Source of the DNA: Eledone cirrhosa
Taxonomy: Eukaryota
Assembly (NCBI GenBank): GCA_964016885.1
Contig: OZ024762.1
Span: 20,894,001-20,958,000 of the forward strand
Reading direction: 5' to 3'
Length of the DNA stretch: 64,000 nt
This document shows, in pieces, positions 4,711 through 64,000 of the stretch (the first letter of the stretch is position 1; every line of letters starts with the position of its first letter). A model generated the notes under the pieces. The model searched no databases. It had not been told where the DNA came from and saw only the letters and a list, made by a program, of their open reading frames with translations. The position numbers and the translations under genes are program-made.

Positions 4711-4792
4711 ATTTGGAAGACCAGGTGTTGACTGCCATTGCTGCCACCCAGAAGAAGCGGCTGTGATACAAATTTTATTTCTAATAAATGAG
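4711..4792 (+). CDS. STXBP5: Tomosyn / syntaxin-binding protein 5 coding exon (82 bp; WD40 region)
   Basis: tag|A TTT GGA AGA CCA...AAT GAG|gtaagg encodes FGRPGVDCHCCHPEEAAVIQILFLINE, recognisable as the tomosyn/Lgl FGRPGV..AVIQL.FLINE motif. Its phase-0 end joins 34046 in frame (NE|GALV). Absent from the ORF track; found by reading. Confidence 0.93.
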
Positions 4793-4913: not shown

Positions 4914-5862
4914 GAGATCTGTTACTTCCCACACCTTGTCTACCAAAATATGTACTGTTACTTCCCACTCCTTGTCTACCAAAAGATGTACTGTCACATC
5001 TGTTACTTCCCACTCCTTGTCTACCAAAAGATGTACTGTTACTTCCCACTCCTTGTCTACCAAAAGATGTACTGTCACACCTGTTACTTCCCACTCCTTG
5101 TCTACCAAAAGGTGTACTGTCACATCTGTTACTTCCCACTCCTTGTCTACCAAAAGATGTACTGTCACATCTGTTACTTCCCACTCCTTGTCTACCAAAA
5201 GATGTACTGTCACACCTGTTACTTCCCACTCCTTGTCTACCAAAAGATGTACTGTTACTTCCCACTCCTTGTCTACCAAAAGATGTACTGTCACATCTGT
5301 TAATTCCCACACCTTGTCTACCAAAAGATGTACTGTTACTTCCCACTCCTTGTCTACCAAAAGATGTATTGTTACATGTTAATTCCCACTCCTTGAGTAC
5401 CAAAAGAAGTACTATTACATCTGTTACTTCCCACACCTTGTCTACCAAAAGATGTACTGTCACATCTGTTACTTCCCACACCTTGTCTACCAAAAGATGT
5501 ACTGTCACATCTGTTACTTCCCACACCGAGTCTACCAAAAGATGTATGTTACATCTGTTACTTCCCATACCATGTCTACGAAAAGATGCACTGTTACATT
5601 ACTTCCAACATCATGTCTACCAAAAGATGTACTATTACATCTGTTACTTCCCACACCATGTCTACCAAAAGATGTGATGTTACATCTGTTACTTCCCACA
5701 CCATGTCTACCAAAAGATGTGATGTTACATCTGTTACTTTCCACACAATGTCTACCAAAAGATGTTCTGTTACATCTCACACCATGTCTACCAAAAGATG
5801 TACTGTTACATCTGTTACTTCCCACACCATGTCTACCAAAAGATGTACTGTTACGTCTGTTT
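4914..5862. repeat. 42/33-bp minisatellite just downstream of the first tomosyn exon
   Basis: Unit (cacatctgt)tacttcccactccttgtctaccaaaagatgtactgt, with or without the 9-bp segment. Confidence 0.9.
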
Positions 5863-33835: not shown

Positions 33836-34045
33836 TGGCGAGGGTGAGAGAGATGAAGGCAGTGAGTGAAAGAGAGAGAACATCCACACTTATTTACTTA
33901 TTTATTTCTTCCTTCAACATTCATGTTGAAATCTACTGGGTAAAACATTACTTTGTTTTATTTGTCATCCTTTGCCCTTTATATATTTCTACCACATTGT
34001 ACTGGCTTTTTGAATCTTATCGGTGATTTATTATCTTATTTTCAG

Positions 34046-34146
34046 GGTGCATTGGTAACAGTTTGTTCTGATGATACCTTACATCTATGGAATTACCGAC
34101 AAAAAAGGCCAGATATTGTGCACACCTTGAAATTTATGAAAGAACG
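34046..34146 (+). CDS. STXBP5: Tomosyn / STXBP5 coding exon (101 bp)
   Basis: ttttcag|GGT GCA...GAA CG|gtaagt encodes GALVTVCSDDTLHLWNYRQKRPDIVHTLKFMKE(R), matching tomosyn GALVSA..DDTLHLWNLRQKRP.I.HSLKF..ER. Ends in phase 2. Confidence 0.95.
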
Positions 34147-34425
34147 GTAAGTGATTCACCTATACATACATATATATCTATCTATCTATCTCTATATAGT
34201 CTGGAACTAGCTGTTGAAATGGCATGAGCTCAGTCGTCGCACCCTGACCCTTTTTAATATAATAACCATACTTGACTACCCCAAGTGCTGTGGACTCTAA
34301 CCAAATTCACACTGAAGCCATCTTTATATATATATATATATACGTTATTCCGGGTTGAATCGGAGGTAACCACAGTAAGTAAGGTACTCAATACATAGCA
34401 GAGTATAATAGTTTTAATATAGATG

Positions 34426-34476
34426 AGATTCTACAGGACTAGAACTGTTTCATTCATTAGAAATCATCAGGAATCT
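34426..34476 (-). ncRNA. Type I hammerhead ribozyme, inverted copy
   Basis: Exact reverse complement of 39498-39548. Confidence 0.8.
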
Positions 34477-35244
34477 GGGTATCAAAAAATAAATATGGTA
34501 TTTATAGGTCTCTACAAGTGGTAGGAGAGGGTGGGGAGTGGGATGGGTGCAGGTCATTGGTTGATAGAGAAGGGAATTCATTAAAGGCTAATTCTACATA
34601 GCTATAGTTAATTTATATTTATTTATGTTTTTAGAGTAACAAAGGCAGACAGAAATCTATAAACAAGTTCCGGATGGCATACCATTCCTTGTCAATAAGT
34701 TTCTCTTAAGCTAGCAGATGTCTATAAAATCAGTGGGGGGTCATTCATGCTCGATAGAATTAAAGAAAAGGGAGATTCTTTAAAAGCTAAAGTCATTAAG
34801 TTCTGCTAAGTGACAAAGGTCTAGGGAATTCTGCAGACAGATTCAAAATACTGAGTGCATATCTTACTATTATCTTCGAACTTCTCTTAAACTAATCAAC
34901 AATATGCCAAATCAACAGAGACATTCACAAAAAAACAAAGAAACCCCAAAAAGACCAAAAAAACAGAAAAACAAAAAAAGCCACACCTAAAAAAAACCAC
35001 CAAAAAAACACACATACTCACTCACACACTTACGCGCAACCATAAACACACACATAAACACAAATACACACATAAAAACACACACACATATATAAAAAAA
35101 GTATATAAATATATACAAATATATATTCATGTACACGCACATGCATACACACATACATACATACATACATATATAAAATACATATACACATATACATACG
35201 CACACATATATAATACATATACATATATATATATATATATATAT

Positions 35245-35291
<47 letters not shown>

Positions 35292-35450
35292 TACACACAC
35301 ACACACATACATACATACACATATATATATATATACACACATACACACACACACACATACATACATATATATATACATATATATATACACACATACATAT
35401 ATATACACAAATATATATATATATATATATATACACATACATATACATAC

Positions 35451-35485
<35 letters not shown>

Positions 35486-35620
35486 CACACACACACGGAT
35501 ACACACGCACATACACATACATACACACATACACACATATATATACACAAGTAAATACACTCACACGCATACATACAAACACGAGTATACATATGTATAA
35601 ATATCTATACACACACACAT

Positions 35621-35675
<55 letters not shown>

Positions 35676-35790
35676 CATATACACACATACATACACACAC
35701 ACATACACATATATACACATACATACACATATATATATATATATATACATATATATACATACATATATATATATATATATACATACACAC

Positions 35791-35835
<45 letters not shown>

Positions 35836-35898
35836 TACATACACACACATATACATACATACATATATATATATATCTCTCTAAACACACATATACAA

Positions 35899-35989
<91 letters not shown>

Positions 35990-36133
35990 TATATACACAC
36001 ACATATATATATCCATACATACACAAACATACACATGCATACACAGACCTATACATAAATATACACATATATATACAGAGATATAACGCACAAATACACA
36101 CACATATATACATACACATATATATATATATAT

Positions 36134-36430
36134 GCCCATACCCACTCCTTCAGAAGACCGGATAAATCAAACCAAACAACACTCGCCTCCTACGTTTGGG
36201 ACCTCAAAAGGAACTCCACCCCCTTCACGCTTAATTGGAAAATACTCCAGAAAGCGCGCTCTTACGACGGAGGACACAAGGGCTGCGACCTTTGTATTTC
36301 AGAGAGTTACGAAATTTTATTCGCCAAGGGCCCGCTACTGAACAAACTCTCTGAACACTGCCCGAACTGCATGCACAAGAACTTTGCAACATTCAAACAC
36401 TTTAAGCCAGTGTTAAAGCCCGATGGCTAA
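36134..36430 (+). pseudogene. Penelope-like (Neptune-type) GIY-YIG endonuclease C-terminal fragment
   Basis: Open frame not in the ORF track: [84 protein letters not shown]. Motifs H..SF, T.L..Y.W.LK, W.IL, CxLC..E, LNK.SE, C.H. Confidence 0.85.
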
Positions 36431-36679
36431 AAACGACCTCCCCCTATTGGCCCCTATACCTCCTCCCCACCCTACCCCCACCCCTCCTCAACCTGAAATA
36501 CGGCCACTATGGTCATGTGAGTACCTCTTTTGTATCTACTTTTTCTGCCTGTAGAGGTGTCTTTATGTGCCTGTGTATATGCGTATATTTATTGAGTACC
36601 TATTTACTTGTATGTGTATATATTTGTTTGTATATGTGTATATGTGTATGTGTTGTGTGTGTATTATATGTATGTGTAT

Positions 36680-36719
<40 letters not shown>

Positions 36720-36729
36720 GTGTATGTAT

Positions 36730-36775
<46 letters not shown>

Positions 36776-36922
36776 TGTGTATGTATATATGTGTATATAT
36801 ATATATATATGTTTGTGTGAATACGTGTTTTATGTGTGTATATTTATGCAGGTATATGTTTGTATGTGTCTGTATTTATGTATGTATGTATGTATGTATG
36901 TGTGTGTATGTATGTATATGTA

Positions 36923-36975
<53 letters not shown>

Positions 36976-37202
36976 GTATATGTATGTATATGTATGTGTA
37001 TGTATATGTGTGTGTGTATGTATGTGTATGTATATGTATGTTTGTATATGTGTGTGTGTATATATTTGTCTGTATATATGTGTATATATGTATGTGTATG
37101 TGTATGTATGTGTATATATATATATATGTATATGTATATATATGTATGGATATATATATATATATATATATATATGCATATATATATGTGTGTGTATGTG
37201 TA

Positions 37203-37245
<43 letters not shown>

Positions 37246-37276
37246 GTGTGCGTGTGCGTATGTGTGTATATGTGTG

Positions 37277-37335
<59 letters not shown>

Positions 37336-37587
37336 ATATGTATGTGTTTGTGTGTATGTATATGTATATATATGTGTGTATATGTGTGTGTATTTGTGAG
37401 TGTATATGTACATATATGTGTGTGTGTGTATGTACGTATGTGTATGTATATGTATGTGTATATGTATATGCATGCGTGTGTATATGTATATATATGTATA
37501 TATATGTATATATATATATATATGTATGTATGTGTATGTGTATGTGTGTGTATGTATGTATTTGTATGTGTCTGTATATATATACAT

Positions 37588-37635
<48 letters not shown>

Positions 37636-37637
37636 AT

Positions 37638-37669
<32 letters not shown>

Positions 37670-37740
37670 GTGCATGAGAGAGAGAATGTGTGTGTGTATA
37701 TATATTTTGTGTGTGGGTGTGTGTATATGTGTATGCACGC

Positions 37741-37786
<46 letters not shown>

Positions 37787-37802
37787 ATGTGTGTGTGTAT
37801 GC

Positions 37803-37856
<54 letters not shown>

Positions 37857-37980
37857 ATGTATATATGTGTGTGTATTTGTGCGTTATATCTCTGTATATA
37901 TATGTGTATATTTATGTATAGGTCTGTGTATGCATGTGTATGTTTGTGTATGTATGGATATATATATGTGTGTGTATATA

Positions 37981-38081
<101 letters not shown>

Positions 38082-38144
38082 TTGTATGTGTGTGTTTAGA
38101 GAGATATATATATATATGTATGTATGTATATGTGTGTGTATGTA

Positions 38145-38189
<45 letters not shown>

Positions 38190-38302
38190 GTGTGTATGTA
38201 TATATATATATATATATGTATGTATATATATGTATATATATATATATATGTGTATGTATGTGTATATATGTGTATGTGTGTGTGTATGTATGTGTGTATA
38301 TG

Positions 38303-38349
<47 letters not shown>

Positions 38350-38484
38350 ATGTGTGTGTGTATAGATATTTATACATATGTATACTCGTGTTTGTATGTA
38401 TGCGTGTGAGTGTATTTACTTGTGTATATATATGTGTGTATGTGTGTATGTATGTGTATGTGCGTGTGTATCCGTGTGTGTGTG

Positions 38485-38519
<35 letters not shown>

Positions 38520-38678
38520 GTATGTATATGTATGTGTATATATATATATATATATATATTTGTGTATATATATGTATGTGTGTATATATATATGTATATA
38601 TATATGTATGTATGTGTGTGTGTGTGTATGTGTGTATATATATATATATGTGTATGTATGTATGTGTGTGTGTGTGTA

Positions 38679-38757
<79 letters not shown>

Positions 38758-39497
38758 GTATTATATATGTGTGCGTATGTATATGTGTATATGTATTTTA
38801 TATATGTATGTATGTATGTATGTGTGTATGCATGTGCGTGTACATGAATATATATTTGTATATATTTATATACTTTTTTTATATATGTGTGTGTGTTTTT
38901 ATGTGTGTATTTGTGTTTATGTGTGTGTTTATGGTTGTGCGTAAGTGTGTGAGTGAGTATGTGTGTTTTTTTGGTGGTTTTTTTTAGGTGTGGCTTTTTT
39001 TGTTTTTCTGTTTTTTTGGTCTTTTTGGGGTTTCTTTGTTTTTTTGTGAATGTGTCTGTTGATTTGGCATATTGTTGATTAGTTTAAGAGAAGTTCGAAG
39101 ATAATAGTAAGATATGCACTCAGTATTTTGAATCTGTCTGCAGAATTCCCTAGACCTTTGTCACTTAGCAGAACTTAATGACTTTAGCTTTTAAAGAATC
39201 TCCCTTTTCTTTAATTCTATCGAGCATGAATGACCCCCCACTGATTTTATAGACATCTGCTAGCTTAAGAGAAACTTATTGACAAGGAATGGTATGCCAT
39301 CCGGAACTTGTTTATAGATTTCTGTCTGCCTTTGTTACTCTAAAAACATAAATAAATATAAATTAACTATAGCTATGTAGAATTAGCCTTTAATGAATTC
39401 CCTTCTCTATCAACCAATGACCTGCACCCATCCCACTCCCCACCCTCTCCTACCACTTGTAGAGACCTATAAATACCATATTTATTTTTTGATACCC

Positions 39498-39548
39498 AGA
39501 TTCCTGATGATTTCTAATGAATGAAACAGTTCTAGTCCTGTAGAATCT
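39498..39548 (+). ncRNA. Type I hammerhead ribozyme, sense to the tomosyn pre-mRNA
   Basis: AGATTC-CTGATGA-tTTC taat GAAt-GAAA-CAG ttctagtc CTG-TA-GAATCT. 6-bp stem I, stem II, 4-bp stem III, GUA cleavage after 39542. Confidence 0.8.
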
Positions 39549-39977
39549 CATCTATATTAAAACTATATATATATATATATATATATATATCATCATCATC
39601 ATCATCATCATCGTTTAACGCCCATCTTCCACGCTTGCATGGGTTTAGACGGGAGTTTTCCCACTTGAGGCAAGATTAGTTGTCCTGCTCGTATAGGACT
39701 GTCTGGCGGGTTTTCTACGGCTGGATGCCCTTCCTAACACCAACCACGTTTACAGTGTGGACTGGGAGGTTTTTACCGTGTTACCTACACATCATATATA
39801 TATATATATATATATAGGGAGTGTAACTTGGAGTTACTGTAGGTTCACCCGGGTGAACACTCGATGTTTAGGTTCACTTCGAGTGTATTATAGTAAAAAG
39901 ATAACAAGGATGATTGGTTACTCCTTCATTACATTTATTGGTTGGTGACACGTGGTTCGCCACTGCTCAAGGTTTGA

Positions 39978-41265: not shown

Positions 41266-41706
41266 TCTCTTTCTCTTAATTTCGAGTATATTTTTTTGAC
41301 CGGCCACCTTCCTGGTGGCAAGGTTGTAAAAGAAAAGAAATTGTCATCCCTTGAATCGCAAGAATGTTTTGCATATTTTGAAGGTGCCAGCTATCGCAGC
41401 CATTTGTAGACTATGAATTAGGGAGCTGCGCTTTTTGTCCGCAAATCCAAGTTCGGTCATACTTTGGTCCAAGCGGGTTGGTATATAACCCGTAGCACCA
41501 ATAATGATGGGTATGAAGCTAAAGGTGTATCTTGGATACTGGATTTGTAAGCTCCTCATCAATGGTCCGTAGATGTCCTCCTTCTCCTGTATTTTTCTGA
41601 CAACGTTTACATCAAGTGGGCAGCTGATCTCCACAACAGAACACGTTTTCAATGTGTGGTCCCAAACTACAATATCAGGCCGGTTGTGCTTTAATTTGGT
41701 GGCAGT
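41263..41706 (-). mobile_element. 3' end of an R4/Dong-like non-LTR retrotransposon (restriction-like endonuclease domain)
   Basis: KHNRPDIVVWD..VVEISCPLD.NV..K..EKEDIY..IPIIIGATG matches the PD-(D/E)xK RLE of the R4 clade. Uninterrupted ORF, short 3' UTR, abuts (CA)n on its own strand. Confidence 0.85.
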
Positions 41707-42079
41707 TTGTATGTATGTATGTATGTATGTATGTATGTATGTATGTATGTGTGTATATACATTATATATTTATTACATGTGTGTTGGTATGCCCCCCCCC
41801 CCTCACTCCCCTCTCTCTCTCTTTCTCTCTCTGTATGTATGTAAAAGGTAAATAACAACACAATCGGTTCAGTATATGGAAGGAATATATTAGGTTAACA
41901 CTTGAAATAGCAGGAAGAGGGTCTTAACGTTTTTCGATGCTTATCCTTCATCAGAAGAAAGAATGAGAAATTAAAAAGATTGAAGGGACGGGCAGGGTGG
42001 AATTGGAAAAAATGTTTTTAGAGAAAAATAACAGGTCCATTCATGTTGCCATATCAATATATCATGTGTATATGAAAAT

Positions 42080-42995: not shown

Positions 42996-43319
42996 ACACA
43001 ACACACATTTACATGTCTGTCAAACATCTCTACAATTTCACCCAACCTACCTTTCAGTGTACTAACATTGAGAGTGGCAACTCTGAAATGAGTTCCATAA
43101 CAGTCAGGGACTCTCTAACTTGATACTCTTCCTAACGTATTCCACTTTACAAAGTTTGCTGAGTGCATTTTACCATGGCACTAACACTAGAGAAGATGTC
43201 AAGTCTGAAAGGATCTCTCTGACTTTATTTTTCTCAGTCTGTTCACCCCTGAGAAAAATAGAGGAAAACAGAGCTGATATACCTATTGAATATTAATTTT
43301 GTTTTTATCATAGAGAACA

Positions 43320-43610
43320 TCCAGACCAAATAAATGAGATAATGAGATCGAGATCGTGTAGATGTCACGACAAAAAAAAAACACAGTCTACGCTGTAATG
43401 TGGCCGTGTAGGTAACACGGTAAAAAGTTCCCAGTTTCACACTGTAAATGTGGTTGGTGTTAGGAAGGGCATCCAGCCGTAGAAAACCTGCCAGATAGTC
43501 CTAGATGAGCGAGATACGGTCACCCGACCAACCTTGCCTCAAGTGGGACAACTCCCATCTAACCCATGCTAGCATGGAAGATGGACGTTAAACGATGATG
43601 ATGATGATGA
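43320..43610 (+). mobile_element. RTE 3' UTR / tail fragment
   Basis: Same sequence as 6830-7112; (GAT)n tail. Confidence 0.8.
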
Positions 43611-43720
43611 ATTGTTTTGTCTATGTTGAGTTATGTTTTATCAAGTGATAAGACATCTCTTTTTTCACATTGCTTTATTTTATCATAGATTATTTAAAAG
43701 AAATTTCTGTGAATAAATAA

Positions 43721-43975
43721 TCTATATTATAATAAGTGTTGTTTGTCTGTCTGTCTGTCCCACCATTCATCACACTCTCTTTAAATAGAGTAGAGGAGCA
43801 CCACACAAGAGATATGTACTTAGAGAAACGGGAATGCCGTGTGTTTTCAAGGTGACAGAAAAAGGTAGATAGACATAAAGTTACGGCGTCGCCCTCATCT
43901 ATATAGAGAGAGGGGAGTGCCAAGCAAGAGATATGTACATAGAGAAAAGGAACATTATCTGTTTAGAGAGATTTG
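43721..43975 (+). mobile_element. Probable non-autonomous Helitron 5' end
   Basis: a|TCTATATTATAATAAG followed by a (GTCT)n microsatellite, typical of Helitron 5' termini. 3' end not located. Confidence 0.5.
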
Positions 43976-44172: not shown

Positions 44173-44362
44173 TTGTTTAGAGAGAGAGATAGTGTGTGTG
44201 ACAGAAAGAGGGAGAAGACATTTCCCTCATCTAATAGTAATAAGTTTGTGTTATGTTGCTATGATACTGTGAGTTGAATATATATAACTTAATTGGGACA
44301 TAAGATATAAAATATGAGTTGTATTCATTTTCCTTATTCTTGTAGCTTTATTTTATCATAGA

Positions 44363-47300
44363 CTAGCTGAGGTACCTGGCATTACCCAGGTAAACATAAG
44401 AGAAGACCAGTAGAAGAGAAAACGACTGTATTGGATGCATTGTCTGGTTTACAGTATGAGACGAGACAGTTGTCTCTGTGTGTGTGTGACATAAAACAAA
44501 AGTAAAAAAATGTCCAGATATGCCAGATTTTTCATTTGACTGTTTGTGCATAGTATATAAAGATTTCTAGGTGTTCCAACTTGTGAACAACCTACATATA
44601 ATTATCCATGGGTAAAAACTGATTCTCTCAGATTCAATCCTACAACTTTGCGACTCTGACTCTGAAATTTATTTATGGTCACAGCAAAACTGACTCGAAC
44701 AGGGAACTGAAGTCTTGAGAATTTGAATGGGAGTTATGTAGAGCAAGGGATTAGAGGAATCTTGGGAATAAATGAATTTTCCCCTTGATGATTGCCTCCA
44801 ATCTTTAGCATCAATTTGTATGGAGGAAGTCCAGGAAGTTCCAGACTATTAAGAAACTCTGCAGAATAATCACCTTCTTCAACTTTGTCATTGGAGACAT
44901 ATGTATGAGTATCCCATGAGAGTATATCCAGTAGACATTGGTTGATCTAATTTACCATATTATTTTTTGGTGCTAAAATTGCTTGCCCAAACAGCTATGA
45001 TTGATTGATATAATTTGTGGCAACATTTGGAAATACTTGATGAATTAGTTAATTTGGCAAATTACAAACATTTCCAAATGGCAAGCTGACTTCTCCATTT
45101 TCACCTTGTTGCAGATTTCCTTTGCTCAGTGTAATTAGCTGTTTTGCAAAAGTATCAATTTCTGCTCCATTGTACAACTGCATTCTCATGTTTGTCCTCA
45201 GGGGTAATCGCCGGACTTGTTGCCATACAGTTGAGACTTTGAGGCAAGCATTTACAATATTAGCTCTTGCGTTTTTAGGAACGATGGAAATCTGTCTGAG
45301 GTCACCAGTGAGCATCATTGTTACTCCTGCCATAATTTCATTACATCCTCTAATGTCTCTTAAAGAATGGTCCAGAGCCTCAAATAACCTATGTACCATT
45401 GTTGCCTCATCCCTTTTGGTCATGGAACATTTCTCTAAAAGCTTTGCTTTTGGCGTGTTCTTTTTGATAATGCATGGAGACCATTCTCTTATGATACTCA
45501 ATGGCAACTTGAACGTTGTGGTGTTTTGCCTTCATCAAATAAGGTAGCACCAAAAGCAATTTGCTTTCACTGCGTTACTTTTGCCAAAATGAGATTTATT
45601 ATGAAGGTTTTACCAGTTCCTCTGGGAGCATCCAAGAAGTAAAGGCCTCCTTCATTCTGATCGATACTGTTCAATATTTTTTCATAAACAATTCTTTGAT
45701 CTTCAATCAGCTTTTTTTCATTTCCATTGACATATTGTGTAAGCTTATTGATGTCATAGTTCGTCTCCCTTAATATATCCTGTGAAATATGGTATGCAGC
45801 TGTGTCCTCAGGTTCTGGTAAACCACAATCCTTAAGAGACCAGCCAATTTCACTCAGGTGGTTGTTAATTTCTGTCAGTGCTTCATTATAGATTGCTGGA
45901 GAAAAATCTACATTAATGCCAGTGTTTTGAAGTTTGATCCTGCGCAATATATCACCTGGCAAGTCTTTCTCATAGTTTTCCCAGAGACTCAAGGGATCTG
46001 AAATATTACATGTAGTGAGCATTACAGCGAAGAGCTATCAAAGCTTTTTAGTCATTTGTGTGGCAGCTGCCTCCTTCAATGTCTTTTTCCAATATAACGT
46101 CTTCAAATAGGCCAAATAATTTATATACTTCAGTATACAATTCATGGGGAGTTCCATGTACAGTTTTGATATTTTCAAATGTTGTTGGCCCTCTAACAGT
46201 GTGAAAGAGTAACCTCAAATAGAAACATTCACTATGTCTAGGATGGAGCATGTAACCTTCCTATTGTGACAGTTGTTTTGATGACTGATAGTCATTCACA
46301 TGATTGCCTATCTTTTATTTGCTCCATTTCTTTTTATTCCATGTATAGAATGTGGGAATCTCACAATAAATCAAGGTTTTTGCAAAAGCATCTTCTCTAC
46401 AAAGCTTTAAAAAAGCAGTGAGAGTTGTATCCAGAGGAGACTCAGCAATTAATTGTGCATTTCATTCAGTGTAATATACCCTCTGACTATTTTCCAATTG
46501 GACTGCAAGGTGTGTCTATTGTGTATGTCAAATCCAAAGATTCTCCATTTGGCTTCATTGCTAGAAATATATCTCCCTGTGAGTTATGTTTTAACTTCAT
46601 TCAGTTGGTTATTGCCACCAATAGTAAAAGTAACCATATCACTGCCTTTGTTGATATATTTACAAACATACTTAATCGATTTGACTGATGCACTGTACTT
46701 ACAATTGATGTGAGCATCAAGGATTTTGCAGAGGAGTGGATTGTAGGGAATGTTCCAATTGTTACCAACCTGAACGTCTTCACCTCATATCTTGATAATC
46801 AGTTTTTCCACCAAATTCAAGGCTTCTCCATCTGAATTGAGGATATTCTTCGTTGCCAGTTATGGTTTCTTGTTGAAAAGGTCTTGAATATCTTTTCTTT
46901 ACATTTGTTACCTTTCATGCACACACTGCCACATGGACCATCAATCATTTGTTTTGAGATAATGGCAAATAGTTCTGGGTTATCTTCAGGATTGGGCAAT
47001 TCGGCATTTATGATTTTATCAATTTCATCTGAGTGAATGTGGTTTGTATACCAAATTAGCATGTGGTAATGAGGAAGACCTCTTTTCTGCCATTCAATAG
47101 TGTAAAGCCAACATCTTAGTTCACCAAAGGTTTATCCATCTTTTAGCAGCCACATCAAGATCTTCTGTTTCTCATTCAAATCCCTGGCAATGATGTCATG
47201 CCTATCTTTTGCATATTGGTGTCCAAACAATTCATTTTGAATTTCAGGCCACATAGGATTGCATGTAGATGTAATGAAAAGATCTGGACAACCAAATTTT

Positions 47301-48885
47301 CTTACATATGCCATGACATCTTGTGTGTGCTCAGCCATAGAGCATGGACTGCCTGTGAAGCTAGATGGCAGAATGACTGGCTGACCAACACTGGAAGGAT
47401 TCATTCCATCAATTATAATGGAGTTTCTCAAATGGATGTATTGTTCTGCTTTAAGTTTAGCTTGGTTGTTTTTAATGAATGACAGTCATTCAGCTTCAAT
47501 CTTGGCATAAACACCAACCATTAATTGGCTTGTAAGTTTCCCATTCTTAGGATATGATTAAAGCAATCTCTTACCATAAAGTGGAATGAATAATAGTCTT
47601 TGCAACTGACTGATTTATTAGTTCCCTCGCCTGTACAGGGGTTTACTTGTCTTAAGATGTCTTTCCTGAACTCTCCAAAAAATCAAATGCCACTGAAGAG
47701 CATTGTATGCTCTGTCTCCACAATTCTTCATAAACGATCAGATCTCTCATGTACAAATACGTCTCTGGATCCATGTCATTCATTGACATGGGGTTTGCAT
47801 TTTTCTTCTAAGAAAAATTTTTATACTCATATGTCATGATGGTTTTCATGAAGAAAATTTTGCAGACTGCTAATAACTTGTAGCTGAAGACCAGTGGAAA
47901 TATTTCTGCATTGTTGAGTAGCTTCTTCTTTGTTGTTGCCGAAAAAGTAAAACTTGAATAAATTTTGTTTCCTCATTAGGCTGCGGGAGTAAACGGCTGA
48001 TTAAATGGTAGAATTGTCCTTGGATTTTAAATGTTGTAAAATCACCATTGTCAGTTTGATTTTTTTTCTGCTCCAAAGGATATCATCTGAAATGCAGCAT
48101 TATTATACTTCATAATATTGCTCCTAAAGTGTTTAGCTTCATTAGTATCGACTGTAAACGGTATACAGATAACAAGTGGAGGATCTTATATCAGTGGAAG
48201 TCTGACTTTCCTTCTAAGCAACACATGCCAAGTGTTTCTCTTTTCCATTTTCTGTTTCCACAACTACTGCATGTAATGTTCATGCCACCAATTGCAACTT
48301 TAGGATCATTTCTATAATTCCTTGATGGATCATATGAAAACGTGGCTCTTAACCAGTTTATTCTGCCTTGAGCTGCTTAAGTTTGCATCACAACTCTCAA
48401 TGCTTCTTGGTAATTTTCATATTCAGCCTCCGTTTGTTGTGATCATATTTCTTCTTGTCTTAATCTTTGTTTCTCGTCTCGGGTTCACTTTCAGAAAGTT
48501 GCAATCGTCTTTCTTGTTTTAATCTTTCTGTTTCCTGACTCATATTCTGCTGAATCTCATGTGTTGTGATCATTGTTTTTGTTGACTTGGCCTTTTACTC
48601 CCAAGTTTTTTTTTACATATTGTTCTTGATTTTCTCTTAAAGATTTTGTCCCTTTGATGAACCTAATAGCTCTCCCGACAGATGAGCGGTGTTTTGATGG
48701 TATGTTGAAAATATCAGAAAAAAACAAAACAATATAAAGCAATTTAAAAAATACAAATAAATGCAAAATAACAGCCATTGCAGGGTCTTATATGGCAGCC
48801 CTAGAGGATAGGTGGACACTATAAGAATTAAGTCAGTAACAGCATTCGAGAATATCCTCAAAGTTAAATTAATATACGCTGTAGA
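44363..48885 (-). mobile_element. Degenerate autonomous Helitron (RepHel pseudogene)
   Basis: Minus-strand fragments in order: FKIQGQFYH; VILPSSFTGSP..PDLFIT.TCNP.WPEI; HUH motif EWQKRGLPHYHMLIW (~47055-47100); KYVCKYINKG; FYLRLL..VRGPT; Walker A FLDAPRGTGKT; DEATM; GDLRQI; LRTNMR. 3' end is hairpin tacctgg..ccaggta plus CTAG|T at 44363. The 5' TC at 48885 is only a candidate. Confidence 0.92.
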
Positions 48886-48971
48886 TTTTCAAATAGCATT
48901 AATTTTATCACTGGTTGTGTTTTGGTTTTTTTGTGATGTGTAAAGACACCAACCAACAAACATCTCTCTTT

Positions 48972-49420: not shown

Positions 49421-49696
49421 GACAAATCGTGTGTGTGTGTGTAAACCAGTGTTTGAATCCACGGAGATGCTGGCTGCAAAACATGAGCATTACTGACAAC
49501 CTAGTGGGGTCGGTTAGCATACCCAAGATGTTTTTCTTCTTTGATATTATAAAATTAGTATCAATAAACCTTTCTGGATATACCCTTATTCCATTGGTGT
49601 ACTTACTTTTCGATTGTCAGTTTTTGTTTTTGTGTGATGCATGAAGATTAACCAACAAAGATCTTTTTGATGTTATATAATAGATTCTATATTTTT

Positions 49697-51706: not shown

Positions 51707-52864
51707 AACGATATGTGTATTTTGTGTATGTGTGTGACGTCCGAACGAGTTTCCCCTCTTCCAACTAACTTGGTCCCAGCCGATAGGATGGAGAATAAAT
51801 ACATCGCACCAGAGGACGTCGAGGGAGACACGCTAGAGTAGGTGTCATCCCAGATGAGGAACCTACCTAGGATTGTCATGTCGTCCCCTCGGTTCAGCCC
51901 CGCTGGGAAGGGAAGCCTGCCCCGTCCATGCCATGCTTTATGATTTCATTGTGTAATCCAGCGTTTGAATCCACGGAGACGTTGAGAGAGCATGCGTATA
52001 GAGAATCCCTTATGGTTGTCTCCCAACCTGCTAGAAATAGCAGTCGGGGTTGGTTAGCATACACAGGATATTTTTCTTCTTCTCTGATGTTATAAAATGA
52101 ATATCAATAAACCTTTCTGGGTATACCCTTATTCCATTGGTGTACTTACTTTTCGATTGTCAGTATTCGTTTCGTTTTGGTATGATGCGAGAAGACACCA
52201 ACCAACAAACATATCTTTTATATTGACCATAACTATAGAATGTAATAGTGATCAAAATTGTGGCATATAAACTCGTATACCTGTTTGAGCACTGTTTTCT
52301 TTTTTCCTTTTTCACATCTACGGGTATTTACTATTTATTTCTGTGTAGAAATCACAACGGAAGGGTTTCTCTCCATTGTGTGTTCTTTTGTTTATAAACA
52401 TTGTAACGATAATGTCTTAACGCCGATGAGGATCTCATCATCGTTGGCAGCTCGTGGGGCTGTTTCGTCCGAACACAGAAGAACCGAACTCCCACTGTCA
52501 TTGCTTCCATCTCTTTCGATTATGAGCAAATGGGGTCCCATGTGCTGGCCGCCCCACGGCCCCGGCGGACAATGGAAAAGGCGTATCGAGCCCATAAGGA
52601 TGAAAGGCAAAGCTAACCTCGGCGAGATTTGAACTCAGAATGTAAAGGGCCGTAACTCTGTCGCAAAGCATGTTGTCCGGCGCTCTACCGATACTGCCAA
52701 TACGCCACAATGAAATAATTGTTTTTACTATAATGTTTGTGTTATGTTGCTATGACACTGTAATTCGGATATCTATAACTTAACCTAGACATAAGACATG
52801 AAATTATTATAAGTTATATTCATTTTCGTCTTGTAGCTTTATATTATCATAGATTAATATTAAA

Positions 52865-53080
52865 ATGGAGGGAAGAATGGTGGAGTTGGACCCTTGTAGC
52901 GGCTGCTCTGATCACGGTGACGATGCTCCCCGCAAACACAAAGAAAATTGTTCATTGCTTCATGGAGTGCATCAGGATCTAAAGAGTGACCAAGTGTGTC
53001 TTTATGCGAGTGTCTGTGTGGTTGTGTGTGTGCTTGTGTGTATTACCGTGTACGTGTGTGTGTGTATGTTGCATTATTAG
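52865..53080 (+). CDS. Putative small Cys-rich tail-anchored membrane protein, paralog 1 (71 aa), nested in a tomosyn intron
   Basis: aaaATGG start context and upstream acceptor-like ttcgtcttgtag. Colinear homology with 53320-53700 (DPCxxC, HxENCxLL, CVxxCVLxCIxVYVCVC). C-terminal hydrophobic helix. Confidence 0.6.
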   Translation: MEGRMVELDPCSGCSDHGDDAPRKHKENCSLLHGVHQDLKSDQVCLYASVCVVVCVLVCITVYVCVCMLHY

Positions 53081-53319
53081 GCAAAGCTAACCTCATCGGG
53101 ATTTGAACTCAGAACGTAAAGGGCCGTAACTCTATACCGCAAAGCATGTTGTCCGGCGCTCTACCGCCATGAAGAAATATTAACAATTAAAATGTTTGTT
53201 TTATGTTGCTATGACGTTGTGATTCGAATATGTATAACTTAACCAAGGCATAAGACATGAAATATAAGTTATATTCATTTTCTTCTTGTAGCTGTATTTT
53301 ATCATAGATTAATATTAAA

Positions 53320-53700
53320 ATGGCGAAGGGAAGTGTGAACCAGTGCGAGCCTGGTGACATTGAAACCCCTGTTGAACCTCGTAAAGCTGACCCTTGTCAA
53401 GCTTGTGAACCGTGTTTACCTTGCGGACCTGACCAACCTTGCCAAATTAATTCAGAAGGCCAACGTTATCAAGAAGGCCAACGTTATCAAGAAGGCCAAC
53501 GTTATCAACCTTATCAATCTGGTCAACCTGATCAAACTGGTCAGTCTGAACAACCCTGCGATCACGAAGAAAATTGTCCATTGCTCTATCAATTTCAAAA
53601 GGAACTAAAGCAGCATCGAGTGTTTGGTTGGGTGTGTTTCTGTGTGACTATGTGTGTGTTAGCGTGTATTGGCGTGTATGTGTGTGTGTGTCTGTTGTAA
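53320..53700 (+). CDS. Putative small Cys/Pro/Gln-rich tail-anchored membrane protein, paralog 2 (126 aa), nested in a tomosyn intron
   Basis: aaaATGG start context and upstream acceptor-like ttttcttcttgtag. Frame-preserving 9- and 18-bp internal repeats (xPC triplets, EGQRYQ x3). C-terminal hydrophobic helix. ATTAAA at 53782. Confidence 0.65.
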   Translation: MAKGSVNQCEPGDIETPVEPRKADPCQACEPCLPCGPDQPCQINSEGQRYQEGQRYQEGQRYQPYQSGQPDQTGQSEQPCDHEENCPLLYQFQKELKQHRVFGWVCFCVTMCVLACIGVYVCVCLL

Positions 53701-54561
53701 TAGAGAGAGAGAGAAAATATGGACATACCAGTTCAACTGTACTCATTAGGCTGCTTGTACATCTTCGATGAGATGCCTGTTATTAAAAATATTTGCTTCA
53801 CATAAATTGTTTTAAAATACGAAAAGAATAGAAGAAAAAAAAAAAAACAAAACAAAAAAACGAAATAACAACCCAACAAACACAAAAGAAAAACCCGGAA
53901 AAGTATTTTTTAACGATAGTTCCTTGGTTGATCACAAATTTGGTTCTGTAACAGAGACTAAATATCTGGAAATACCGAAATTGAAGAAAAAGTGAAAAAA
54001 GTCTTTGATCTTCCTTATTAAAACATTTCAAATAAGAAGCATTAGTAACTAAGAAAATCTCGCTGAGATCTTTTTATTCTTTTTTTTTTTGTCCCCTTTC
54101 TTAGTTTCTTATATTGATAAATTATATTTTAAGAATCTAAGCTTTATTAAAATAGATCTATCACACTTTCGCTCACTCGCTAGGAAAATATATTTAATTG
54201 ATTGTAAAGCTAACTATAAGAAAATCTCGATGAAAATAAATATGATAAATGCATATTGCTTTCTTTTTTTTAATGTAAAAATCCAAATGAAAATTCATTG
54301 TCAATTTTTATTGATCTTCAGCTTTTAAAGACATTTTCAGAAATACTATTTCCACCTCACCGTGAAATTTTAAGTGCTGTTTCTATTGTATTTATTTGTT
54401 TATAATTAATTTAATTCTACAAATAAGTTGTCAGAGATAGAATAAGTTTTAACTTTATACTGATTTTCTTAATGTAAGAATTGTATGTCTGTCTGTGTGA
54501 GTGTTCACACACACACACACACACATATATATATTATATATATATATATATAAAGAAAAAG

Positions 54562-54843
54562 AGATGAAATCGAAAATGCAACTGGAGTCTTATTTTTTTT
54601 TTAAATATATATATTTATTTGGTTCCTTTGCCGGTTTCGCAGTTCTTCTGCTTTTCAAAAGGTGAGTTGAGATGGAGAGTCTGTGGTTTTTCTCACATCT
54701 CACCAGATGTGAGAAAAACCACAGACCCTCCATCTCAACTCACCTTTTGAAAAGCAGAAGAACTGCGAAACCGGCAAAGGAACCAAATAAATATATATAT
54801 TTAAAAAAAAAATAAGACTCCAGTTGCATTTTCGATTTCATCT
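54562..54843. repeat. Near-perfect palindrome: 139-bp arms, 4-nt loop
   Basis: 54562-54700 is the reverse complement of 54705-54843 apart from one A54678:C54727 mismatch; the loop is cacc. Confidence 0.95.
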
Positions 54844-54914
54844 TTTTCTTTATACTTTCACTCGTGTAGGACACCGGTTATTTTTCATTTTGTAAAAAAA
54901 AACCTCACTTTCTA

Positions 54915-62405: not shown

Positions 62406-62540
62406 TATTACGTATTGTCATTTGCCTTTCCAAAGCAAATGGTTTTACCTGGGAACTGAACGCGGGAATGTACACATAGTGAACATCGAAACGTTTTCTC
62501 TGTCTGGTTATGTCATTAATTGGAACAAAGCAATTGAATT
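62406..62540 (+). CDS. STXBP5: Tomosyn / STXBP5 coding exon (135 bp)
   Basis: Polypyrimidine tract, then ttcag|T ATT ACG...GAA TT|gtaagt. CG+T completes the Arg codon from the previous exon. Encodes ITYCHLPFQSKWFYLGTERGNVHIVNIETFSLSGYVINWNKAIE(L), near-identical to tomosyn. Confidence 0.96.
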
Positions 62541-62653
62541 GTAAGTATCAAAAGTTTATGAAAACAAATTTTGTTTTTAAAAAGAGTATATGTTAAAAAA
62601 AAAAGGAAGAAAGGCAATTTTTACACTGCCCTAGGCTCAAACCTGGCTACTGG

Positions 62654-62960
62654 CAATGTCAACTGTTTATAGTATCTTTACTATTGTTGACAGATAAATG
62701 TGAACATCACAATGTCAACTGTTTATAGTATCTTTACTATTGTTGACAGATAAATGTGAACATCACAATGTCAACTGTTTATAGTATCTTTACTATTGTT
62801 GACAGATAAATGTGAACATCACAATGTCAACTGTTTATAGTATCTTTACTATTGTTGACAGATAAATGTGAACATCACAATGTCAACTGTTTATAGTATC
62901 TTTACTATTGTTGACAGATAAATGTGAACATCACAATGTCAACTGTTTATAGTATCTTTA
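62654..62960. repeat. 56-bp minisatellite x5.5, each unit a hairpin
   Basis: caaTGTCAACtgtttATAGTAtcttTACTATtGTTGACAgataaatgtgaacatca. Confidence 0.92.
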
Positions 62961-63014
62961 CCATGGTGGACATATGGATGTGAACATTTGCAGTGCTAAA
63001 CTAAAGATGTTATC

Positions 63015-63535: not shown

Positions 63536-63699
63536 AAGTGACCAATGACCTCTTCTTTTTCCGTCTTTAAGGGTCCTTACCCTATTTTATGAGCTATTTA
63601 TAGTATCTCCATACATGAGCACATCATTCTTTGTATTAACTTTATCCCCGCAGAATTTATATATCACATCGGTCATTTGTAGCTTGTTCAGTTAGAATT

Positions 63700-64000
63700 G
63701 GTGTCAATAACAAGGTTTTTGTTGTCCAGTTTGAGGTTTGGTGTCAATAACAAGGTTTTAGTTGTTCAGTTTGTGGTTTGGTGTCAATAACAGGGTTTAA
63801 TTGTCTAGTTTGTTGTTTGGTGTCAATAAAGGGGTTTAATTGTCTAGTTTGTGGTTTGGTGTCAGTAACAGGGTTTTAGTTGTCCAGTTTGTGGTTTGGT
63901 GTCAATAACAAGGTTTTAGTTGTCCAGTTTGTGGTTTGGTGTCAGTAACAAGGTTTAATTGTCTAGTTTGTGGTTTGGTGTTAATAACAGGGTTTTAGTT
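63700..64000. repeat. 39/40-bp minisatellite running off the window end
   Basis: ggtgtcaataacaaggttttagttgtccagtttgtggttt in tandem. Confidence 0.9.

Follow-up and report, generated by a model that had tools for sequence, protein, structure and literature searches.

Two open reading frames (ORFs) lie in tandem within an intron of the tomosyn (STXBP5) gene of Eledone cirrhosa, and the question raised by this locus is whether they are genes or debris of the repeats from which they are made. The DNA analysed here, referred to as the window, is a stretch of 64,000 nucleotides (nt; assembly GCA_964016885.1, contig OZ024762.1, positions 20,894,001 to 20,958,000 of the forward strand), and positions are counted from its first letter. 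An earlier note on this DNA had described the pair as plus-strand frames of 71 and 126 amino acids (aa) inside a tomosyn intron, and both the coordinates and the STXBP5 exons agree with that description. On the evidence of sequence comparison we think it somewhat probable (roughly 0.55) that the ORFs are young de novo genes for predicted membrane microproteins, built from the 3′ end of a retroposon and a GT microsatellite. The motifs and the anchor of the two ORFs are repeat-derived, yet both frames have remained intact at 26% divergence, and the pair is therefore unlike neutral copies of the same repeat.

Retroposon, start codon and GT tract

ORF1 (71 aa, 52865-53080) and ORF2 (126 aa, 53320-53700, a single copy in the assembly) each follow a so-called leader (52731-52864 and 53190-53319), all on the plus strand. 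Together they belong to a tandemly duplicated unit of ~475 nt, larger than the earlier description had it, which begins within a fragment of what we take to be a short interspersed element (SINE). This fragment lies on the plus strand at 52605-52687 in unit 1, where it is a high-copy repeat of the window, and at 53079-53165 in unit 2; both were identified from blastn self-matches, and they differ at 5 of 83 positions. ORF1 has no 3′ untranslated region (UTR) of its own because its stop codon shares bases with the beginning of unit 2. ATTAAA, a candidate polyadenylation signal with an A-rich tract behind it, can be read on the plus strand at 53782-53787. Pyrimidine-rich AG acceptor candidates end at 52836 and 52852 in leader 1 and at 53291 and 53307 in leader 2, where they had been proposed, and AAA precedes the ATG of ORF1.

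The leader is not an element specific to these genes, as its distribution shows. Used as a query of the assembly it matched at 18 of 18 candidates, on eight contigs, and in the dispersed copies homology runs ~120 nt beyond the ATG position; a search with the part downstream of that position matched at all 40 of the loci scored among 90 candidates. By all-against-all coverage, 30 loci have a fixed 3′ end, a GAA-rich tail and variable 5′ ends, as is typical of a retroposon. A 21-nt motif from the tail had 42 matches in the genome, against none for the reversed control, and about half of 25 fetched loci with this motif lead upstream, as judged by eye, into the decayed ORF2 ends (...CSIGSKRN*) of a long interspersed element (LINE). 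At least four tail-adjacent fragments, among 40 loci tested by tblastn, match the C-terminus of an intact LINE with endonuclease and reverse transcriptase (E 1e-6 to 6e-4), the domains of which are RVT_1, Exo_endo_phos_2 and DUF6451. The AT-rich leader, together with the first ~40 codons of the ORFs (~52865-52990 in ORF1), thus represents the 3′ end of a retroposon, old and dispersed, whose tail is of LINE type.

The composition of this repeat fits an RTE-tailed non-autonomous element, where the partner LINE is presumably of the RTE type. The middle part of the retroposon gave no meaningful blastn match to 14 LINE loci and, by eye, presumably resembles an RTE 5′ UTR; protein and Pfam searches with the decayed LINE pieces of one locus (L090) gave no matches. 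We note that another locus (L125, 1589-4300) carries a near-intact LINE frame of 903 codons with endonuclease and reverse transcriptase, and that all 150 scored candidates (of 7738) in a search for DUF6451 match, so that the LINE family is large. A second subfamily (L078, L081, L084, L086, L089 and L092, near 1250-1520) has the final ~150 nt in common with the retroposon but another upstream part, which suggests that heads have been exchanged on a shared tail of LINE origin. The open-access literature yielded no paper on the locus or the protein pair; supplements, whose repeat libraries may name the retroposon, were not covered.

Read from the ATG position, the consensus frame of the retroposon is open for 43 codons and has DESRPML and KELK at the places of ENCxLL and LK in the ORFs. 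All of the motifs listed earlier (DPCxxC, HxENCxLL, LK and the C-terminal hydrophobic helix) are present in both ORFs. However, HxENCxLL and LK, which had been read as retained coding motifs, come from the repeat and are therefore inherited and no proof of function; DPCxxC is absent from the consensus frame and common to units 1 and 2 only. An echo of the inherited motifs, a CSLL...ELQK-like stretch, is found even in a non-coding sister copy (L007, C23:21136015) that lies 190 kb away on the same chromosome and is frameshifted after seven codons. At the start position the consensus reads ATTG, and ATGG occurs in three of 12 pattern matches, all on chromosome 23, namely units 1 and 2 and L007. 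The change from ATTG to ATGG, limited to the three chromosome-23 copies that retain the junction, supplies the start of the ORFs.

A third, non-coding leader copy in the window (U3, 44238-44362, plus strand) is cut just before the ATG position by a Helitron (44363-47485, minus strand) that has a 3′ end with hairpin and CTAG (fold z −1.85) and broken Rep/helicase frames with matches to PIF1 and Helitron_like_N. Further upstream pieces of U3 lie at 43251-43317 and 43609-43740, and the remainder past the Helitron was searched for and not found. The leader tree of 23 rows is (U3,(L007,(U1,U2))), where U1 and U2 are the leaders of units 1 and 2, with support of 98 and 94 and a bootstrap that is not fully settled. 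L007, compared with 52584-52886 of the window, has a SINE immediately before it, oriented as in units 1 and 2, and another 3′ flank that lacks the GT tract; in all, four related copies lie within 200 kb on chromosome 23. Terminal-like pieces also occur after the broken Helitron, near 48910-48960, 49506-49690 and 51950-52235, where there are several copies of a high-copy segment that at other loci runs to what we assume to be a Helitron-like 5′ terminus.

Three of the marks by which a gene born de novo is recognised are found here. The DNA is collinear with a repeat family in which 24 of the 28 full copies are closed (45 distinct copies were collected, of which 28 passed both end filters and 17 were dropped), and U3 and L007 are non-coding; there is an enabling mutation, ATGG for ATTG; and no homolog among older proteins appeared within the searches made.

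The Cys-rich anchor, which had been taken for a conserved part of the protein, turned out to be a decayed GT microsatellite. (GT)39 tracts on the plus strand at 52994-53071 in ORF1 and 53620-53697 in ORF2, each matching in-phase GT at 58 of 78 nt, encode predicted membrane helices (Val/Cys in ORF1). That the C-terminus forms a hydrophobic helix and the N-terminus lacks a hydrophobic stretch, as claimed earlier, is supported by hydropathy, with C-terminal peaks of 3.08 and 2.7 for ORF1 and ORF2, and by an AlphaFold model of ORF1 from a two-row alignment, which predicts a single helix over residues 25-70, confident in the last 20-25 residues only, and a low-confidence head; the helix of the GT tract has a predicted local distance difference test score (pLDDT) of 94. 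C-terminal hydrophobic tails are inserted into membranes post-translationally or, if rich in Cys, are S-acylated, and the products are predicted to be tail-anchored or palmitoylated membrane microproteins. In simulation, the chance that such a tail would be left without stops or charges after 18 changes was 0.05-0.12.

ORF2, whose start and tail derive from the retroposon, is longer through an in-frame repeat expansion of 9/18-nt units (xPC, QPx and EGQRYQ; 53350-53570, plus strand; Tandem Repeats Finder periods 18, 27 and 18). The insert of 55 extra codons (165 nt) preserves the frame, has its autocorrelation peaks at 9, 18, 27 and 36 nt and nowhere else, and contains no stops in the frame of the ORF against 2-16 in each of the other five. 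To judge from its sequence, the expansion probably grew from a CAACCTT motif of the retroposon.

Divergence and survival of the reading frames

Across the last 45 aligned codons ORF1 and ORF2 differ at 35 of 135 nt (26%), with no indel and no stop; 22 codons change the amino acid and three are purely synonymous, and our recount reproduced the earlier figures exactly. For the leaders we count 12 differences in 130 nt where ~11 had been given, and the single indel reported between them (4 nt) is there. The shared part of the ORFs differs at 38 of 144 nt and the flanks at 27 of 239 (Fisher p=2e-4), and replacement sites at 33 of 106 (31%) against 32 of 277 (12%) for flanks and silent sites together (p=1e-5). 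Nonsynonymous divergence (dN) of the pair is 0.37-0.42 and synonymous divergence (dS) 0.13-0.18, giving a dN/dS of 2-3.

The neutral copies of the retroposon provide a measure of how readily such a frame is lost. Only four of the 28 are open, two of these without indels, and one has an ATG; 39 of their 42 indels shift the frame, and with 563 substitutions there is one indel per 14 substitutions. Simulated with this indel rate, a 71-codon ORF survived in both copies with a probability of 0.0014 at 13% change per lineage (the rate of the ORFs) and of 0.023 at 8%. The GT tracts of the two units differ by 18 substitutions and no indel, that is, without slippage, where a microsatellite-rich duplicate in the window, used as a control, has five indels and one substitution in ~1080 nt. 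Chance alone would hardly explain that the frames were preserved. The pattern of change is no more than suggestive of diversifying selection on the pair.

Several observations weigh against this interpretation. The excess of dN over dS is borderline (p 0.02-0.24), and the probability of three or fewer synonymous codons under neutrality is 0.15-0.37. At 4% change per lineage, the rate of the flanks, both frames survive in 0.14 of simulations, and the microsatellite control is purer than the GT tracts of the ORFs and slips more easily. In the 13 neutral copies whose leader is complete, the tail differs from consensus by 19.5% and the leader by 15.2%, a ratio of ~1.3 by hand sum, and in two of the 13, including the non-coding L007, the tail evolves ~2-fold faster than the leader; with a 1.3-fold difference allowed for, the contrast between ORF and flank stands at p ~6e-4, a value that leaves out the uncertainty in the flank rate. 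Mismatches to the consensus tail (19 of 54 in unit 1, 16 of 54 in unit 2) reach the upper end of the neutral range of 10-19, as seen in ungapped copies selected by their leaders. The non-coding spacer between SINE and leader has diverged at 10 of 26 positions, and gene conversion acting on the flanks could account for some of the contrast between ORF and flank. The locus was also chosen, among many windows, for its gene-like look.

Neither protein matched a Pfam family up to E 5, a word-indexed search of 5.8 billion proteins with ORF2 gave no match among 85 candidates, and ORF1 had no homolog among 1.84 billion representatives; the protein Atlas held no homolog, and an exact look-up of three sequences found none. 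These empty searches, whose sensitivity is limited by short, low-complexity queries, likewise weigh against the pair being genes, and agree with the earlier note in recognising no known family. No RNA dataset is listed with the stretch, which is contained in three runs of unstated kind from one study. Neither protein nor DNA search found a further paralog of the pair in the assembly; a third genomic match to ORF1 (L003, E 1.5e-5) was rejected as microsatellite plus chance.

The earlier note had thus been right that the ORFs changed faster than their flank while keeping frame (p=2e-4; survival 0.001-0.14), although the split between silent and replacement changes is by itself not unusual under neutrality, and its proposal of diversifying selection is left suggestive and statistically borderline. 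The toxin, immune or gamete-recognition roles that it envisaged find nothing to point to them among the tests made. It had also said that a transposable element (TE) fragment with dN/dS near 1 and random indels would speak against a gene; the unit is indeed a TE fragment, but its dN/dS is above 1 and random indels are not seen.

Alternative explanations and a possible history

The main rival is that the pair is neutral repeat debris, a reading that we do not favour but to which we give substantial weight. Here a frame that was already open, a chance ATG and an adjoining GT tract were duplicated together, the flanks were converted, with SINE and leader kept alike by gene conversion, and the frames were lucky. 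Nearly every part of the ORFs can be traced to repeats, down to the 43 open codons of the consensus, and L007 has the same ATGG yet is frameshifted. Peptides resembling the anchor also arise cheaply in this genome, because of 38 natural decayed GT tracts from the window and the fetched loci, 27 are stop-free and nine of these also uncharged; a hydrophobic peak confined to the C-terminus is found in six of the 189 window ORFs of at least 50 aa, the pair included. The lack of homologs is as this reading would have it. If the flanks had been converted, however, the true neutral divergence would be 26%, at which both frames survive with a probability of ~0.001, and silent divergence should equal replacement divergence, whereas 13-16% and 29-32% are observed. 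Nor does debris readily account for a 78-nt GT tract free of slippage and a 165-nt insert that is in frame.

Two further alternatives, both of which we consider improbable, concern the host gene and the ancestry of the proteins. By tblastn, O. bimaculoides STXBP5 aligns with exons at 4712-4792, 34043-34146 and 62406-62542, and the ORF pair therefore lies in the sense strand of the 28-kb intron 34147-62405; the plus-strand exon before this intron has a phase-2 donor, as read at the junction, and the plus-strand exon after it shows 98% identity over the searched residues. The AGs of the leaders might then serve tomosyn as cryptic or alternative 3′ splice sites and create a poison or truncating exon, with the ORFs never read. 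The units do lie on the tomosyn strand, and both leaders offer pyrimidine-rich AG candidates. Yet none of the four phase-2 joins to these AGs is in frame with the ORFs, and all run into stops after 5-43 residues, for which reason an in-frame fusion of the ORFs to tomosyn was rejected as well, and such an exon leaves the preserved frames unexplained. It is similarly improbable that an old fast-evolving family, whether CYSTM-like, toxin-like or for gamete recognition, came into the intron and changed too far to be recognised. The small size, the head rich in Pro, Gln and Cys and the Cys-rich C-terminal helix do resemble the CYSTM layout as given in part of the description of that family (PMC2804304), but the DNA is collinear with a non-coding dispersed repeat across leader, start and tail, which largely refutes the idea, and there is neither a Pfam match nor another paralog in the assembly.

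If the ORFs are young de novo genes, their history may have been as follows. A retroposon would have inserted that is now ~17-20% from consensus; the local chromosome-23 lineage would then have acquired ATGG, and one copy would have read through into a GT tract with a stop just after it. The ~475-nt unit would have been duplicated in tandem, and copy 2, now ORF2, would have grown by in-frame repeats, while selection, we infer, preserved the two frames and permitted or drove changes of amino acid. Insertion would date to roughly 50 and duplication to roughly 15 million years ago if the O. vulgaris clock applies, which, in the part of the source used here (PMC13282606), was set for another species and may not fit this one. 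The putative transcript would run on the tomosyn strand, probably from a putative upstream exon spliced to either leader AG, so that the choice of acceptor would select ORF1 or ORF2; it might end near the ATTAAA at 53782, with translation from AAAATGG. The C-terminal helix is predicted to be inserted post-translationally or S-acylated, leaving a cytosolic head rich in Cys, Pro and Gln. By analogy with CYSTM, the proteins might serve in membrane stress or metal handling, or modulate a membrane partner. The fuller proposal, that this is a positively selected de novo pair, with a start and head from the retroposon and an anchor from GT repeats, forming two alternative terminal exons within tomosyn beside non-coding sisters, is tentative, and we hold it to be rather doubtful.

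Setting and precedents

The genome of the window is octopod-type; a PDB sequence search with the tomosyn exon returned nothing informative. Minisatellite arrays lie in or beside the tomosyn introns at 139-1793, 4955-5861, 62654-62987 and 63698-64000 (periods of 48, 45, 56 and 40 nt), and the output of a repeat finder run over the whole window was dominated by microsatellites. At 34408-39566 there is a very young inverted duplication, identical at 617 of 619 nt in its unique part, whose long TA/TG tracts differ through slippage only; a frame at 36059-36430 presumably represents a Penelope-type endonuclease end. An open frame of 141 codons (41344-41769, minus strand) has no Pfam match and resembles what we take to be the restriction-like endonuclease end of a non-LTR element (LTR, long terminal repeat). 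An LTR promoter considered at 51737-52212 was rejected, as the high-copy part (~51950-52224) aligns with copies ending in what we assume to be a Helitron-like 5′ terminus. A near-perfect fold-back of 304 nt (54549-54854, 96.7% self-complementary), similar to miniature inverted-repeat transposable elements, has a related stretch after the retroposon copy of another locus (L018). Elsewhere in the genome, two pairs of loci 260-360 kb apart (L011/L012 on C3 and L161/L162 on C2) show near-identical sequence in the parts read, which suggests either recent segmental duplication or duplicates in the assembly.

Genes are already known to arise from TE fragments and simple repeats, and by emergence in which the membrane helix comes first, and the pair is a candidate addition to both; the comparisons that follow are with excerpts of the papers cited. 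In crickets, de novo gene candidates made of TE fragments and simple repeats have been described with expression data (bioRxiv 10.64898/2026.07.07.736878). Like these, the ORFs are short, compact and domain-free, with predicted helices; unlike them, the pair is known from sequence alone, each of its modules is traceable, with non-coding sisters nearby, and it was later duplicated in tandem with excess amino-acid change. The yeast gene YBR196C-A exemplifies the ‘TM-first’ (transmembrane-first) mode of emergence (PMC7005711), in which, as here, a membrane helix is ready-made in compositionally biased non-coding DNA. The source in our case, however, is a (GT)n microsatellite that yields alternating Val and Cys, in place of T-rich intergenic DNA; a retroposon contributed the soluble part.

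CYSTM and CYSPD proteins, in which a Cys-rich hydrophobic C-terminus may anchor by palmitoylation (PMC2804304, PMC10840359), also have fewer than 150 aa, a variable, non-globular N-terminus rich in Pro and Gln (clearer in ORF2) and a Cys-rich C-terminal helix. The CYSTM profile is unmatched in our pair, which lacks the conserved acidic C-terminal residue, is not eukaryote-wide and has an independent origin in repeats, so that these families are the nearest working analogue and not kin. The source retroposon, for its part, resembles the bipartite RTE-derived retroposons and RTE-tailed SINEs, including Ceph-SINEs (PMC5786205), in being dispersed, variably 5′-truncated and fixed at its 3′ end, with ~45 nt and the GAA-rich tail of decayed LINE 3′ ends. 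It differs from RTE-tailed SINEs in its AT-rich 5′ body of ~800 nt with internal repeats; no tRNA head was seen, and none was searched for.

Should the pair prove not to be expressed, it would be a warning that in these genomes a decayed GT tract will routinely pass for a Cys-rich membrane anchor, and that motifs common to tandem copies can be mere repeat ancestry. If it is expressed, it would be an unusually legible case of animal gene birth, in which modules, start mutation, non-coding sisters and duplication can be read on one chromosome; it would extend the membrane-helix-first model from yeast to GT microsatellites and directly test whether new proteins are supplied by octopus repeats. 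GT tracts abound in octopus genomes, and the path from microsatellite to membrane anchor, if our reading is true, could therefore be one by which lineage-specific membrane microproteins have arisen repeatedly in cephalopods.

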